Of a stretch of 44,580 nucleotides of DNA, positions 16,630 to 20,935 are shown one piece after another; position 1 is the stretch's first letter, and each line of letters opens with the position of its first letter. A model generated the notes under the pieces. The model did not search any database. It worked only from the letters and a program-made list of their open reading frames with translations, and had not been told where the DNA came from. The DNA comes from a virus (taxonomy: Duplodnaviria; Heunggongvirae; Uroviricota; Caudoviricetes). The stretch lies in the IMG/VR virus record IMGVR_UViG_2534682161_000019. One strand, given 5' to 3'. A program made the position numbers and the translations under genes.

Positions 16630-16990
16630 TATTCAGCTGGTTATGGAGCGGTGGGGAGCATGGGCAGCAAGTAATCATGAAGATGTAACATGGTCCTCGA
16701 TAGCTGCTGGTTTTAAAGGATTAATCCCGACTAAAGTGAAATCACGTCCTCAGTGTTCTGATGATGACGCCATGATAATTTGTGGCTGTATGGCACGATT
16801 AAACAAGAATAATCAGTATTTGCACGATTTGTTGGTGGATTATTACGTAGGTGGAATGACATTTATGGCTCTTGCACGTAAGCATAGATGTTCTGATGGG
16901 CTTATTGGTAAAAGACTTTATAAAGCTGAAGGTATTATTGAAGGAATGCTTATGGCTCTGAATGTCCGGTTAGATATGGATATGCGGTAG
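16616..16990 (+). CDS. Q: late-gene antiterminator Q (phage 82/21-type, Quu-like)
   Basis: 124 aa; [18 protein letters not shown]...[14 protein letters not shown]...LLVDYYV... resembles E. coli prophage Quu antiterminators; immediately upstream of the late region. Confidence 0.7.
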
Positions 16991-17137
16991 GGATATATAG
17001 TGACGAGGGTTATGTTTTCCGTGTTTATAATTAATATGTTTATTTTTTGATGGTCATGAATTTTATGGAAGGTAAACAAAATGTTGCCAGGTGAATTGAA
17101 AATATTGATAATCAATCATCATCATTAAATAAAAGGA

Positions 17138-17961
17138 GTGTTTATGTGGATTGTGTTAGCACTGTCACTGTCAACTCTCAGTTGGCATAAGGTAGTGGCT
17201 TTTTCATTGTTGACGGTGTCTGTTGTCCTGGCTGTGCTTAATGATATTATTGATTGGCCGGTGTTGTTTTTTGTTGCTACAATCGTTTTTTTTATTATTT
17301 TGAAGTTCAACTGGAAATATAACGCCTGGGCTAAATCCATATATGAAGCTGGCATAGTTTTATCAGCCATAGCATTATCTTTCCATTTATGGCCAGGGTT
17401 TCACAATCCTGTAGTGCTAAAGTCTGTCACTGTCGGACCTCAAAGCACTCCCTATACAATGTATTTTAATTTTGATAAAGCGCTGGTGCCATTTTTGTTA
17501 GTCCTGTGTACAGCTTCTTTGTTTAAAAAAGAAGTGAAATCAGAAGTGTCTTTGTGGAAATGGGGGGCTCTGTTGCTCTCTGTTCCTCTTATACTGTTTT
17601 TGGCTGTTTTTTTGGTGGGTTAAAGCCAGAGATTCATTTTCCAGAGTGGTTGCCAGAGTTTATATTGGCTAATTTGTTTTTTGTGTCTCTGGCAGAGGAG
17701 TCATTATTTAGAGGGTATATTCAATCACGGCTATCAGAAGTGACGTCTCCATTGGTTGCGTTAATTGTGGCGTCTTTGTTGTTTGGTTTTTATCACTATT
17801 CAGGTGGTGCTTTACTTGTATTATTTGCCACGTTATCTGGTGTTGTGTATGGATTGTCATGGATGTGGAGTGGGTGCTTGTGGGTGGCAACCCTTTTCCA
17901 TTTTGGTCTGAATCTGTGTCACTTGTTATTCTTTACCTATCCATTCTTAAAACATAATTGA
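17138..17961 (+). CDS. CPBP-family intramembrane metalloprotease (CAAX protease/Abi domain), disrupted by a frameshift in a T7 run
   Basis: ORFs 17138-17623 and 17554-17961 overlap in different frames; second part carries CPBP motifs EESLFRGY, FGFYHY, HFGLN; adding one T to the T7 run at 17607-17613 restores a single ~275-aa multi-TM protein; AT-rich. Confidence 0.65.
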
Positions 17962-18102
17962 TTTTTTTCTATGGCTTTAAATTTATAACACTGAAAAATA
18001 GCAGTATGTGACATTTGCATGAAAAATATGCACGGCAAAGCATTTACGTACGTAAAAAATCATGTATGCTTTTAAGAGTGGTTATTTCACCGCATAGCCT
18101 GA

Positions 18103-18126
18103 ACCCGCCTCTGAGCGGGTTTTTTG
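18103..18126 (+). terminator. rho-independent terminator after the CPBP gene
   Basis: ACCCGC-CTCTGA-GCGGGT hairpin followed by TTTTTTG. Confidence 0.55.
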
Positions 18127-18248
18127 TGCCCGCAAAGTAGCGCAGTGCGTTAAATGTGCTGGTAGTTATTAATACTGGTCTTTCTGCTTGCTGGCTTTTT
18201 AGACAAGAGTTATTGGTATGTCACGTTAACCAGAAAAGGGAAAAAGAC

Positions 18249-18446
18249 ATGCTAAAACAGCAGGATATGACCGAAACCGCCAGAGTGGTGTTTAATGAAT
18301 TAAGCGTCACCGAACCGGCGACCGTCGGGGAGATTGCGCAGAATACTTACCTTTCACGCGAGCGCTGCCAGTTAATACTGACTCAGCTTGTTATGGCGGG
18401 TCTGGCAGATTATCAGTTCGGTTGTTACAGACGCCTTCCGCAGTGA
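18249..18446 (+). CDS. hypothetical small winged-helix-like protein upstream of the methyltransferase
   Basis: 65 aa from the ATG at 18249 (AAGGGA RBS); ...VGEIAQNTYLSRERCQLILTQLVMAGL... resembles a DNA-binding wHTH. Confidence 0.45.
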   Translation: MLKQQDMTETARVVFNELSVTEPATVGEIAQNTYLSRERCQLILTQLVMAGLADYQFGCYRRLPQ

Positions 18447-18596
18447 AGGCTTTTTAATTTGTGGTAATGGGCGGCTGGTGGGTGTTAGCGGCACCTGCCA
18501 GCCATCTGCTCATGCGTTGGGGTCACAAGCAAACCTCAGGCCCATCTGCTTTGCGCAAAAGCGGTATGAGCCTATCAGAGAAGTGCTTATTGATCT

Positions 18597-19146
18597 ATGG
18601 CTAATACTGTAAAAATATCCAGCTGCGAGTTAATCAACGCTGATTTCCTGGAATTTATCCAGACCTTACCGGAAAACTCTGTCGATCTGATAGTCACAGA
18701 CCCGCCATACTTTAAAGTGAAGCCCGAGGGCTGGGATAACCAGTGGAAGGGCGACGATGATTACCTGAAATGGCTGGATCAGTGTCTGGCGCAGTTCTGG
18801 TGGGTATTAAAACCCGCCGGAAGTCTTTACCTGTTCTGTGGTCATCGCCTGGCATCTGATATCGAAATCATGATGCGTGAGCGCTTTAATGTGCTGAACC
18901 ACATTATCTGGGCGAAGCCGTCCGGGCGCTGGAACGGGTGCAACAAGGAAAGCCTGCGGGCGTATTTCCCGGCAACAGAGCGCATTCTGTTTGCGTCCGG
19001 GAGATTTGGTTGCCGACTTTTTCATGGGGTCAGGCTCCATAATAAAAGCAGCGCTGGCACTTGGGGGCATGGCGTTAAGCGTTGAACTTGAGTCTGAACG
19101 TTTTGAGCATACTGCGGGTGAAATAGTTACGTTGGCAGATAATTAA
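18597..19146 (+). CDS. DNA methyltransferase (N6-adenine/N4-cytosine type, DPPY motif), apparently frameshifted or internally deleted
   Basis: N-terminal frame contains TDPPYF; the SAM-binding motif (PGDLVADFFMGSGS...ALALGG...) is in a different frame ending at 19146; the combined length is short for this family. Confidence 0.55.
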
Positions 19147-19260
19147 ATCACTGCACAATAAGCTAATGAATTGATGTTAACTTCCCGTATTATTGGGCTA
19201 CTTCGAGAGAAAGGTGCATTACATTTCAGATGTATTTCATCTCACATCCGAGGAAGCAAT

Positions 19261-19336
<76 letters not shown>

Positions 19337-19339
19337 TAT

Positions 19340-19414
<75 letters not shown>

Positions 19415-19546
19415 ACATTTGATAGAGGCGTATTGCAGCACTGGCGTATTTTTATTACGTGAGGACAGATTGTTTTTTTAGGAACTCTCAGTTTTCGGGC
19501 TATGTTTTGAGGCCAGGTTAGCCTCAGTGCTGATTTTTTACAATAC

Positions 19547-19615
19547 CGGAATGGTGCATTATTGGTTGGGTTACGTAGTGAGCCCTATGGCAGGTACCGG
19601 TGATGCACCATTCCG
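19547..19615. other. long imperfect hairpin (13-bp stem, ~43-nt loop) downstream of the tRNAs
   Basis: CGGAATGGTGCAT (19547-19559) pairs with ATGCACCATTCCG (19603-19615). Confidence 0.4.
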
Positions 19616-19694
19616 ATGTTGTAAACATCACTTAGAGTAAGTTATAGAACAATTTGCTACTAAGTAAAACCTGAAACCTGGGAATACATCTTTA

Positions 19695-19718
19695 CCGCCA
19701 CACTTGGCGGTTTTTTTT
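19695..19718 (+). terminator. rho-independent terminator (possible tR-prime-like late terminator)
   Basis: CCGCCA-CACT-TGGCGG hairpin followed by TTTTTTTT. Confidence 0.6.
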
Positions 19719-19816
19719 ATTCTGTTTTTTCATGGCTCGCTACGGCGGCCTTTTTCATGTATACCCTGGCGGTTATTATGATGGCTTGTTTATTTGTTCA
19801 TAAGAGGATTGATACA

Positions 19817-20299
19817 GTGGTCACTTATGCTGATATCAGGGCAAAACGGGCCGAAATACTGAAAGCTAAGCAGGAATACATTCAGCGGTTGCGGGATACA
19901 GCCACAAGGCTGGTCAATGCCTATGAGTCTTCACTGGCGTTGCCGGAACTGCAATGGCGAGACATTGAGGGTGAGTTACATCCTTACGTCTATATTTGCT
20001 TCAATGGCTTCAGTGTCCGACCGGAGGATTTGCAGGTAGACCTTAGGGACGGAGTTGCGTTTAAATTATACACAGTTGTTGATGACAATCCCCGCCAGTC
20101 TGCAAGTATGGAAGTTGGTGTAAAGATTGTGCTGCTTGATGGCGATAACCTGACGATTTCAGTTAATGGTTATGGGGACAGAACATTTTCGCACGTAGAT
20201 ACCGATGCAAAAATTAACGAGGTATGCGAGTTCATCAAAGACAGTATTTTAATGTCGATGAATGATGTGAATTTGGCAAAGCATCTCTGCCGAAGATAG
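19817..20299 (+). CDS. hypothetical protein (moron at the position stx occupies in Stx phages)
   Basis: ORF track 19757-20299; GTG at 19817 lies 9 nt after an AAGAGG RBS; no recognised motif. Confidence 0.4.
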   Translation: MVTYADIRAKRAEILKAKQEYIQRLRDTATRLVNAYESSLALPELQWRDIEGELHPYVYICFNGFSVRPEDLQVDLRDGVAFKLYTVVDDNPRQSASMEVGVKIVLLDGDNLTISVNGYGDRTFSHVDTDAKINEVCEFIKDSILMSMNDVNLAKHLCRR

Positions 20300-20509: not shown

Positions 20510-20935
20510 ATGTTTGGTATTTTCAAAAAGAAAACACGCAAGGCCATTACCGAAGTGAAGAAGATGGAGAACCGCGACGCAGTGGAGGCGACCGTCTGGG
20601 GTGCGTATTCCATTGCATACGCTGACGACACCTGTGACTCGAAAGAAATCGCGGTACTGGAGAAAACCATTGCAGCACTTCCTGCCTTTGCGCCGTTCTC
20701 CGGTGAGATTGCACAAATGAGTGCAAATATCCGCGCCCGTTATGAAGCGTCGCCGCGCTCTGCCAATGCTGAAGCCCTTCGCCAGCTGGCTGATGTCGCC
20801 GGTACTGATGACGCAGTGAATGTGCTGTGCCTGTGTCTGGATATTGCAGACCAGGATGGCATTGGGCCGGAGGAAGAAGTACAGCTCAAGAAAATTGCTC
20901 AGGCGCTTCAGTTACCGCTGGAGCAGTACCTGTGA
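20510..20935 (+). CDS. TerB-like (tellurite-resistance TerB domain) protein
   Basis: 141 aa; layout ...AYSIAYADDTCDSKEIAVLE... and ...DIADQDGIGPEEEVQLKKIAQALQL... resembles the two TerB repeat units (ADG..S.EE / SDG.FDDDEK...IA..LG). Confidence 0.5.
   Translation: MFGIFKKKTRKAITEVKKMENRDAVEATVWGAYSIAYADDTCDSKEIAVLEKTIAALPAFAPFSGEIAQMSANIRARYEASPRSANAEALRQLADVAGTDDAVNVLCLCLDIADQDGIGPEEEVQLKKIAQALQLPLEQYL

Follow-up and report, generated by a model that had tools for sequence, protein, structure and literature searches.

The subject of this report is a small cassette in a 44,580-nucleotide (nt) stretch of DNA, virus record IMGVR_UViG_2534682161_000019 (hereafter the window); the piece under study is 18249-19146. 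It contains an intact gene for a 65-amino-acid (aa) winged helix-turn-helix (wHTH) protein, a structured RNA leader, and the remnant of a DNA methyltransferase (methylase) divided between two reading frames. With the terminator that precedes them, these elements very probably make up the cassette with which the late region of a lambdoid prophage opens (18104-19146), in the order terminator, wHTH gene, leader of about 150 nt and methylase, the last of these dead by deletion. The covarying, unannotated leader and its conserved winged-helix neighbour are the most interesting item of the interval. The features of the cassette, including open reading frames (ORFs), are the following:

18104..18125, plus strand: intrinsic terminator, CCCGC-loop-GCGGG and then T6, read from the sequence
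18187..18224, plus strand: conserved motif CTTGCTGG-N-ACAAGAGTTATTGGTATGTCAC, some 25-60 nt 5' of the wHTH start codon, from an alignment of relatives
18249..18446, plus strand: intact 65-aa winged-helix gene, NCBI name 'TrmB family transcriptional regulator' (ORF, homologues, AlphaFold2 (AF2) model)
18447..18596, plus strand: conserved structured RNA leader (alignment, RNAalifold, covariance model)
18597..18994, plus strand: N-terminal methyltransferase remnant, codons 1-133 (Pfam N6_N4_Mtase match and protein alignment)
18597..19085, plus strand: methylase ORF as now read, 162 aa (ORF list and protein alignment)
18993..18995, no strand: deletion junction, ...ATTCTGTTTG followed directly by CGTCCGGGAG (BLAST coordinates and MAFFT alignment)
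18994..19146, plus strand: C-terminal methyltransferase remnant, equivalent to codon 301 to the end, in the other frame (Pfam match and alignment)

Inactivation of the methylase gene

The Pfam profile N6_N4_Mtase has 221 positions, of which the N-terminal piece matches 1-105 (E-value 2.4e-16; 60.8 bits, cut-off 26.7) and the C-terminal piece 180-218 (E-value 2.4e-08; 34.6 bits); the middle of the profile, positions 106-179, is unmatched in the window. Both pieces exceed the gathering score, and intact genes of phages and prophages share 93-97% DNA identity with the 5' piece, so the likeness to methylases is not due to chance. The catalytic motif IV, DPPY, is found at 18699-18710 in the frame of 18597, and the S-adenosylmethionine (SAM)-binding motif I, FxGxG (here FFMGSGS), at 19018-19038 in the frame that ends at 19146; the frames of 18597 and 18994 differ, and the two motifs are not in one frame. 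An initial annotation of this DNA had proposed a 65-aa wHTH-like ORF at 18249-18446, followed by a methylase that is short for its family, with DPPY and FFMGSGS in separate frames. The ORF is present at these coordinates, the ORFs and the two Pfam halves bear out the separate frames, and the pieces combined make up about 183 of about 350 residues.

When both halves were aligned to intact relatives, no single intact frame emerged, the pieces remaining in two frames, and the lesion was located at 18993/18995. BLAST and MAFFT agree on one clean gap of 503 nt, in which 167 codons (134-300) and 2 nt are gone, and the frame changes because of this remainder of 2 nt. C18994 is the sole base of microhomology, and the sole ambiguous base, at the junction. 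Of the two causes that had been offered for the split, frameshift or internal deletion, the second is therefore the one that stands, and a simple frameshift does not. Residues 1-133 have 97.7% aa identity to the proteins of TUM9812 and phiP27 (L24) and 95.5% to that of phage 1720a-02, and the C-terminal part corresponds to residues 301-347 of the intact proteins at 68-80% aa identity. Judged by alignment, codons 134-300 are the central target-recognition region, which is absent from the remnant. ORF 18597-19085 consists of 133 native residues and 29 out-of-frame residues up to the N-frame stop at 19085, and has neither the target-recognition region nor motif I. The methylase gene is thus dead through one 503-nt internal deletion; on its sequence, the remnant is not expected to be an active methylase, and its only possible product would be the 162-aa fragment that lacks the SAM-binding motif. 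The wHTH gene and the leader are left intact by the deletion.

The same breakpoint is seen from outside. In megablast searches of phage records with a 1,351-nt query, the relatives found were phiP27 (93%), many Stx2 phages, 1720a-02 (90%), SfV (83%) and mEp460 (78%), and every intact phage relative stops matching at query base 895-896, that is, window 18994-18995. The whole query is matched at 99-100% by seven complete E. coli genome records, and the other matching records align with it as two pieces lying about 500 nt further apart. That the split is an artefact of sequencing or assembly, or a frameshift of 1-2 nt in a gene that is really intact, can be dismissed for practical purposes. Errors in the window are conceivable, as the adjoining CPBP gene has a 1-nt change in a T8 homopolymer that is a possible sequencing error, but the loss here is of 503 nt, not 1-2, and the junction is identical in seven independently finished E. 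coli genomes of different sources and in four IMG/VR contigs, which makes the deletion inherited and not an assembly error. A repeat-mediated origin was also considered and rejected: the microhomology at the junction is just 1 nt, and the adjacent GCAG/GCAG repeat of the intact genes gives the wrong junction.

It is very improbable, too, that the remnant still functions, be it as a methyltransferase assembled from two separate pieces or as a shortened protein that has acquired another role, for instance as a dominant-negative partner of other prophage copies. Such a role would draw on the intact leader and start region, from which the 162-aa DPPY fragment could be made on induction, on the 2-5 copies of the methylase family in many E. 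coli genomes, and on the dimers as which beta-class methyltransferases are thought to act (PMC7544214). Against this, 167 residues including the target-recognition region are lost, the frame of the C-terminal piece opens only with TTG (18991) or an internal ATG (about 19024), with no ribosome-binding site for that piece evident on reading the sequence, and the allele is rare (7 of 1,875 gene-matching genomes). Furthermore, the same 3' allele has independently decayed by N-terminal truncation (08-00022, L093), which suggests relaxed selection.

The gene family is common and the deletion is rare. Among 5,426 complete E. coli genomes searched with the 550-nt remnant, 1,875 have matches, in 2,540 places, and just seven have the deletion; among the matches listed, all non-deleted ones stop at base 398 of the remnant. 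PGAP calls the identical allele in GB089 and N96 an incomplete methyltransferase pseudogene plus a 40-aa 'hypothetical protein'. We also fetched 80 IMG/VR contigs, each encoding a wHTH protein identical to that of the window: 67 have a full-length methylase, one has the same deletion, one has no methylase, and 11 are incomplete or partly matched; six of the 80 loci are too short to be judged for the methylase. The loss of the methylase is ordinary prophage gene decay, and identical alleles already bear a pseudogene flag in RefSeq.

The 3' 152 nt of the remnant come from a diverged allele, whose DNA is about 77% identical to TUM9812 and phiP27 and 93% identical to strain 08-00022. No intact gene with this 3' allele was found in the 5,426 E. 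coli genomes (eight matches, of which seven are deleted and one is N-terminally truncated) or, by exact 30-mer, in IMG/VR (five matches, four deleted and one truncated). The truncated form results from an independent deletion, shared by 08-00022 (L004 3700-4153) and one IMG/VR contig (L093), which begins just upstream of the wHTH gene, after GTTAAC, and removes the wHTH gene and methylase codons 1 to about 224. The right breakpoint of the 503-nt deletion lies near the mosaic boundary seen in 08-00022. The junction may have arisen by simple deletion in a mosaic ancestor or by out-of-register recombination between two alleles; both fit, no intact gene with this 3' end having been found. E. coli N96 (L005 1-2457), which also has the 503-nt deletion, carries an IS66 element at the wHTH start codon.

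Probable identity of the lost enzyme

The intact relatives (phiP27 L24, SfV orf48 and the enzyme of phage 1720a-02) are 348-352 aa long and have the order DPPY, central region, FxGxG. The TUM9812 locus consists of a 198-nt 'TrmB family transcriptional regulator', a 1,047-nt methyltransferase, tRNA-Thr and tRNA-Gly, and the phiP27 locus of L23, L24 (1,059 nt), ileZ, argO and stx2e. The relatives of solved structure, as identified by matches to PDB sequences, are beta-class enzymes such as M.RsrI, M.MboIIA and CcrM. M.EcoGII, a 349-aa beta-class enzyme borne by an E. coli O104:H4 prophage, is reported to methylate adenine whatever the surrounding sequence, to be silent in the lysogen and to be deleterious when over-expressed, and has been proposed to shield phage DNA from restriction; the methylase of phage 1720a-02 has been named as very similar to it (PMC5778455). 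The gene of this same phage is among the megablast relatives of the window gene, and the remnant would accordingly be placed, via the published likeness of the 1720a-02 enzyme, in the M.EcoGII family of N6-adenine methylases. The proposal that the locus had held an orphan phage N6-adenine methyltransferase agrees with its surroundings, in which it is flanked by a CPBP protease gene upstream and tRNAs downstream and has no restriction gene beside it, and the suggested anti-restriction role fits the published account of the M.EcoGII family (PMC5778455).

A structured leader upstream of the methylase

In all 24 loci first examined, 142-153 nt separate the wHTH stop from the methylase AUG. The initial annotation had made no mention of this spacer, whose nucleotide identity equals that of the flanking coding sequence, though synonymous sites there are saturated. 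RNAalifold folds the leader into four helices, and a terminator scan adds a hairpin at its 5' edge:

18467-18472 / 18508-18513, plus strand: helix P1
18473-18482 / 18494-18503, plus strand: helix P2
18521-18530 / 18585-18595, plus strand: long-range helix P3
18539-18545 / 18566-18572, plus strand: helix P4, with an inner stem 18553-4/18561-2
18433..18450, plus strand: terminator-like hairpin GCCUUC-CGCAGU-GAAGGC and then UUUUUAAUUU, with the wHTH stop at the edge of loop and stem

The 3' strand of P3 ends 1 nt before the methylase AUG at 18597, so that this helix pairs the 11 nt immediately upstream of it. To add diversity, IMG/VR relatives of the Proteus and Plesiomonas methylases were included. 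A sequence-only hidden Markov model (HMM) finds the leader in 123 of 149 loci, with most matches reaching the methylase start; some weaker matches are confined to its 5' part or are followed by a Com-like ORF (see below). Of 88 non-redundant sources, 69 contain the leader according to the covariance model, and in every one except L252 it runs up to the first start codon downstream. Base pairing was scored in two alignments, one fitted to the model and one made by MAFFT only, with the structure projected from the window sequence, and in controls in which the pairing partners were slid by 1-3 columns:

Standard-pair cells: model-fitted 92.2% (slid 23-44%); MAFFT-only 86.5% (slid 28-41%)
Pairs changed on both sides, of 32: model-fitted 24; MAFFT-only 13
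Cells with compensatory change: model-fitted 244 (slid 18-56); MAFFT-only 122 (slid 21-78)
Covariation score: model-fitted 0.379 (slid <=0.096); MAFFT-only 0.268 (slid <=0.109)

None of 500 shuffles reached the observed covariation score in either alignment. Alternations of U-A with U-G and of G-C with G-U are frequent, and fit an RNA transcribed from the plus strand; the minimum free energy of the window leader is -68.2 kcal/mol (z -2.9). There is no Rfam 15 match in 18447-18596 (cmscan of 16900-19800 at E<=1 gave two tRNAs and weak, chance-level matches elsewhere), and the leader is unannotated in all 12 RefSeq records listed. We are confident that the RNA structure is real; the chances that it controls translation of the methylase appear evenly balanced. 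The hairpin at 18433-18450 has a U tract behind it; SfV, mEp460, Kluyvera, Buttiauxella, Enterobacter mori and Plesiomonas have equivalent stop-codon hairpins whose stems differ in sequence, and none was seen in Proteus.

It might be argued that the spacer is kept because it encodes a small protein, translationally coupled to the methylase, from a 45-codon ORF that starts at AUG 18468 and ends 8 nt after the methylase AUG. This AUG does lie inside the invariant AAUGGGCG in 60 of the 66 leaders that have the core, and the ORF overlaps the methylase start in the window, in phiP27 and in a few others. Across leaders, however, the ORF ranges from 4 to 47 codons and the indels are not multiples of three, so that no peptide from AUG 18468 is conserved; no Shine-Dalgarno sequence precedes this AUG, and the compensatory changes and G-U/G-C alternations argue for RNA pairing. 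A coding spacer is therefore improbable, and the leader as a coding upstream ORF was set aside on account of the 4-47-codon spread and the frame-breaking indels.

The winged-helix gene

On the evidence of sequence comparison the wHTH gene is a real, conserved gene. Its homologues form 334 clusters in Escherichia, Salmonella, Klebsiella, Citrobacter and Buttiauxella, many of them named TrmB-family by NCBI, and nonsynonymous divergence is low (pN 0.03-0.17 vs pS 0.5-0.9), synonymous sites being saturated. The AF2 model (pLDDT 92.5) consists of helices H1-H2-H3 and a beta-hairpin wing, and its best Foldseek matches in PDB are generic: OhrR/MarR (TMq 0.81), IclR, the winged-helix dimerisation domains of O-methyltransferases, and SelB. 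Pfam gives no match above cut-off (best 18.0 vs 25.6 bits, with TrmB and MarR_2 weak) and no match to HTH_3. Helix 3 (RCQLILTQLV, residues 37-49), the presumed recognition helix, is invariant even in copies that are 41-52% identical, and the protein has two Cys.

A full-length methylase is found about 150 nt 3' of the wHTH gene in 20 of the 21 evaluable loci, taken as one genome per species from Escherichia to Proteus and Plesiomonas. The composition of the cassette was counted over 84 non-redundant methylase loci. The first wHTH HMM was too narrow (81 of 149 loci) and iteration added diverged forms of 75-98 aa, so that all wHTH counts are lower bounds; at least 47 of the 84 loci have both wHTH and leader. 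The wHTH gene is thus a frequent but not obligatory partner of the methylase across Enterobacterales. Diverged wHTH-like ORFs of 75-98 aa are found 215-317 nt upstream of the methylase in the L204-L240 group, where the leader is kept (L204 707-940, L221 692-985, L233 704-940), and in L203, L210 and L212 the place of the wHTH gene is taken by an unrelated ORF of 81-88 aa that has no Pfam match.

The core of the motif upstream of the wHTH gene, CAGAGYTA, is present in 40 of the 54 loci that carry the gene vs 2 of 30 loci without it. The motif (18187-18224) is possibly a promoter, an operator or an element of the 5' untranslated region; a sigma-70 scan called no promoter in 18131-18248, motif included, and the alignment gives no clear dyad symmetry. 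A site shared by the regions upstream of both genes, CAGAGTTA, was examined as a wHTH operator and rejected, since it was seen in a few lineages (L096, L101, L107) and is not conserved in E. coli-type or Proteus-type leaders.

Probable late expression and possible control of the cassette

The window is a lambdoid prophage, as seen from its integrase, exonuclease, DUF968, RusA, Q, lysozyme, gpA terminase, lambda-type portal and J tail tip protein; the Q antiterminator matches PF06530 with an E-value of 2.8e-51. In SfV, mEp460, phiP27 and Stx phages, an intrinsic terminator immediately precedes the cassette, which has Q on one side and the lysis or stx genes on the other. The site homologous to 18104-18125 is annotated in SfV as a putative rho-independent terminator, a terminator of varying sequence stands at the same place in nearly all relatives, and homology of the window to phiP27 and SfV starts at this element, which is probably a late-operon terminator read through by Q. 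Because of the position between Q and lysis genes, and the published silence of M.EcoGII in the lysogen, we infer that the methylase would be a Q-dependent late lytic gene. The suggestion that it was an 'epigenetic moron' of the lysogen is supported by neither. A comparative paper on pR' (PMC6266700) makes no mention of the methylase or the small ORF.

In an intact phage, the methylase would be transcribed only when Q antitermination passes the terminator in lytic growth, and would then methylate the adenines of progeny DNA broadly, blunting host restriction. Its synthesis is probably restrained after transcription, because the enzyme is harmful when over-expressed, and helix P3, to go by structure and covariation, would limit its translation. 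The wHTH protein would be a conserved but dispensable accessory whose most likely target is a nucleic acid associated with the cassette, be it the leader or the motif that precedes the wHTH gene. In its most complete form, this proposal makes the leader a candidate new cis-regulatory RNA family that gates the translation of M.EcoGII-type methylases by hiding the start region, with the wHTH protein as trans-acting partner, a non-homologous equivalent of com-mom in lambdoid phages. We consider the complete form rather unlikely, and its component by which the wHTH protein acts through the leader is doubtful to a similar degree.

Several observations weigh against the main reading of the cassette. 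Among the 84 loci, 17 have the leader and no wHTH gene, 13 have neither, and seven as tabulated have the wHTH gene with a short spacer of 76-100 nt (about six in truth, L094 never having been searched with the model); as such loci exist, no one regulatory scheme holds family-wide. Some divergent leaders show poor pairing in the outer part of P3. The route to the M.EcoGII family is indirect, and timing, toxicity control and anti-restriction role would all be carried over by analogy from relatives. In the window itself, the CPBP gene sits between Q and the terminator. Concerning the short-spacer loci, L189 and L191-L195 (76-100 nt) give no leader match at all, and for L181 and L187 the match of the sequence HMM is restricted to the 5' part (model positions about 7-79, roughly P1/P2), with short, weak covariance-model matches of about 28 bits. 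This suggests a modular or alternative leader in the short-spacer subgroup.

What the wHTH protein would act upon can be weighed on the same material. One candidate role is that of a DNA-binding transcriptional controller, with a logic like that of the C-proteins, which would bind the motif preceding the wHTH gene and determine when, or how strongly, wHTH and methylase are transcribed. Its tight synteny with the methylase (20 of 21 species-level loci; 67 of the 80 IMG/VR loci with an identical wHTH protein), the presumed recognition helix as its most conserved part, the motif that travels with the gene (40/54 vs 2/30) and a fold closest to the DNA-binding domains of MarR, OhrR and IclR are all consistent with such a role. 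But the motif has no clear dyad symmetry and no sigma-70 promoter is called there, the cassette already lies within a Q-dependent late operon, methylase and leader occur without wHTH in 17 of 84 loci, and the protein is not homologous to XRE-type C-proteins and has no restriction gene whose timing it would need to set. We regard this role as possible, with the balance somewhat on the negative side. The idea that the upstream wHTH is a controller-like regulator of the methylase hence survives as far as the conserved neighbourhood (20 of 21 loci) goes; the likeness to C-proteins, given a winged helix, no restriction gene and 17 of 84 loci without wHTH, does not.

Alternatively, the wHTH protein may be a translational regulator that binds leader RNA, either as a functional counterpart of Mu Com, by which the stem-loop that covers the start of mom is opened, or as an Aca2-like HTH protein with DNA as well as RNA among its targets. 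By its position P3 would occlude the start region of the methylase, and winged-helix domains can bind RNA, those of SelB being among the fold matches. In addition, com-methylase operons have been described (PMC3299994), Com binds the mom mRNA, whose translation it activates (PMC6483171), and in related cassettes Com-like zinc-ribbon genes hold the equivalent position. These are Cys4 ORFs of 38-42 aa immediately upstream of related methylases in 6 of the 84 loci, and in five of the six the ORF sits between leader and methylase:

Com-like ORFs: L239 1058-1183; L241 1062-1187; L242 1058-1183; L250 1019-1135; L259 1062-1178; L263 1051-1179

The L263 ORF scores 34.3 bits against PF10122 (Zn_ribbon_Com; cut-off 22.9), and the L239 ORF 18.3 bits, below the cut-off. 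By analogy, these genes in distant relatives would be a precedent for translational gating within the methylase family. On the other hand, the fold matches of the wHTH protein are generic and RNA binding by it is hypothetical, the leader occurs without wHTH and the wHTH gene with a truncated spacer, and in the two that were read (L239, L241) of the five loci with a Com-like gene between leader and methylase, a longer wHTH-like ORF lies upstream, so that the roles of the two proteins may not be interchangeable. An RNA-binding wHTH protein is unlikely on this showing, clearly more so than a DNA-binding one, and whatever probability these two leave goes to a protein that acts on neither DNA nor leader RNA.

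Neighbouring features

Downstream of the cassette, two tRNA genes of the window occupy the slot where Stx phages have ileZ/argO and stx (comparison with phiP27):

19261-19336, plus strand: tRNA-Thr(TGT) (ARAGORN; Rfam tRNA at 65 bits)
19340-19414, plus strand: tRNA-Gly(TCC) (ARAGORN; Rfam tRNA at 65 bits)

An imperfect inverted-repeat hairpin of about 110 nt lies 3' of the tRNAs (19523-19635) and attracts spurious Rfam matches to microRNA precursors (26.5 bits vs a gathering score of 116.6); it is followed by a 180-aa ORF at 19757-20299 that has no family match and then by TerB-like (20510-20935) and DUF3927 genes.

Upstream, the cargo of the slot between Q and the terminator varies: the window has a CPBP gene there, phiP27 a GIY-YIG nuclease, TUM9812 a MazF-like toxin, mEp460 a hypothetical gene, and SfV nothing. 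The slots have the following coordinates:

Q-to-terminator slots: window 16990-18103; L003 1702-2931; L002 2404-2805; L008 2007-2423

The CPBP/Rce1-like intramembrane protease gene of the window (17144-17961) is split into two ORFs by a 1-nt deletion in a T8 homopolymer (T run at about 17607-17613), as compared with the intact 272-aa gene of GB089 at 99% identity; the split could be a true frameshift, phase variation or a sequencing error. A promoter-like site is present at 17084-17112, and, should pR' be located upstream of the slot, expression of the cargo genes in the lysogen would be possible. A weak isrK-like covariance-model match at 18048-18125 (21.9 bits, gathering score 50, E-value 0.079), which ends in the terminator, is taken as chance. 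In phiP27 and 1720a-02 the nucleotides directly before the terminator are conserved, and 18048-18125 might be a short pR'-to-terminator transcript of the StxS/6S kind.

Significance

The split methylase itself is of minor interest, being one more decayed prophage gene. M.EcoGII-type enzymes are widely used as non-specific N6-methyladenine tools, and about one complete E. coli genome in three has prophage DNA that matches methylases of this type. In the literature searched, we found no description of how phages switch these enzymes on and off. A wHTH partner, a covarying leader at the start codon and Com-like genes together make a testable hypothesis for the control of the methylase, in which the leader, with no match in Rfam 15, would be a candidate new RNA family, a modest new lead. 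If the hypothesis is true, leader and wHTH protein would be a com-mom-like switch for a toxic anti-restriction enzyme in lambdoid phages. The controller idea is a reasonable lead, neither established nor general.

Comparison with known systems

The enzyme is best compared with M.EcoGII and M.EcoGI, the non-specific N6-adenine DNA/RNA methyltransferases of the prophages of E. coli O104:H4 C227-11 (PMC5778455), with which it shares the order DPPY, central region, FxGxG. Like M.EcoGII, the relatives of the window gene are about 349 aa long, prophage-borne and orphan, having no restriction partner, and the N-terminal part of the window copy is 95.5% identical to the 1720a-02 enzyme. Unlike M.EcoGII, the window copy has lost codons 134-300 and is frameshifted, so that no activity is expected of it, and its last 50 codons come from a diverged allele (68-80% aa identity).

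The MarR, TrmB and IclR families share with the wHTH protein the H1-H2-H3 arrangement and beta wing (TMq up to 0.81, to OhrR) and, for TrmB and MarR_2, weak Pfam matches, but the window protein is a bare 65-aa domain that has no dimerisation or ligand domains. The C-proteins of restriction-modification (R-M) systems are likewise small HTH proteins whose gene immediately precedes an R-M-type gene and is itself preceded by a conserved non-coding motif. They belong, however, to the XRE type of HTH proteins, recognise palindromic C-boxes and govern the timing of the restriction enzyme, whereas the window protein is a winged helix, the motif at 18187-18224 has no clear dyad symmetry, and no palindromic C-box was seen upstream of the gene. 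Nor is there a restriction gene beside it: the neighbours in the window are Q, the CPBP protease gene, the methylase remnant and tRNAs, and in relatives the methylase, followed by holin, stx or tRNAs.

The com-mom operon of Mu and the Mu-like com-methylase operons (Hin1523, Hia5, Nme1821; PMC3299994, PMC6483171) resemble the cassette in that a small gene stands directly upstream of a harmful, late, anti-restriction modification gene. A predicted mRNA stem at the start of the modification gene, here P3, is a further point of likeness, its pairing backed by compensatory changes and its masking effect presumed, and Com-like ORFs occur in distant relatives of the window's methylase family. The differences are equally plain: the wHTH protein is a three-helix winged helix with two Cys and not a Cys4 zinc ribbon (Zn_ribbon_Com); the leader is a multi-helix element of about 150 nt and not a single stem-loop; and the window phage is lambdoid, not Mu-like.

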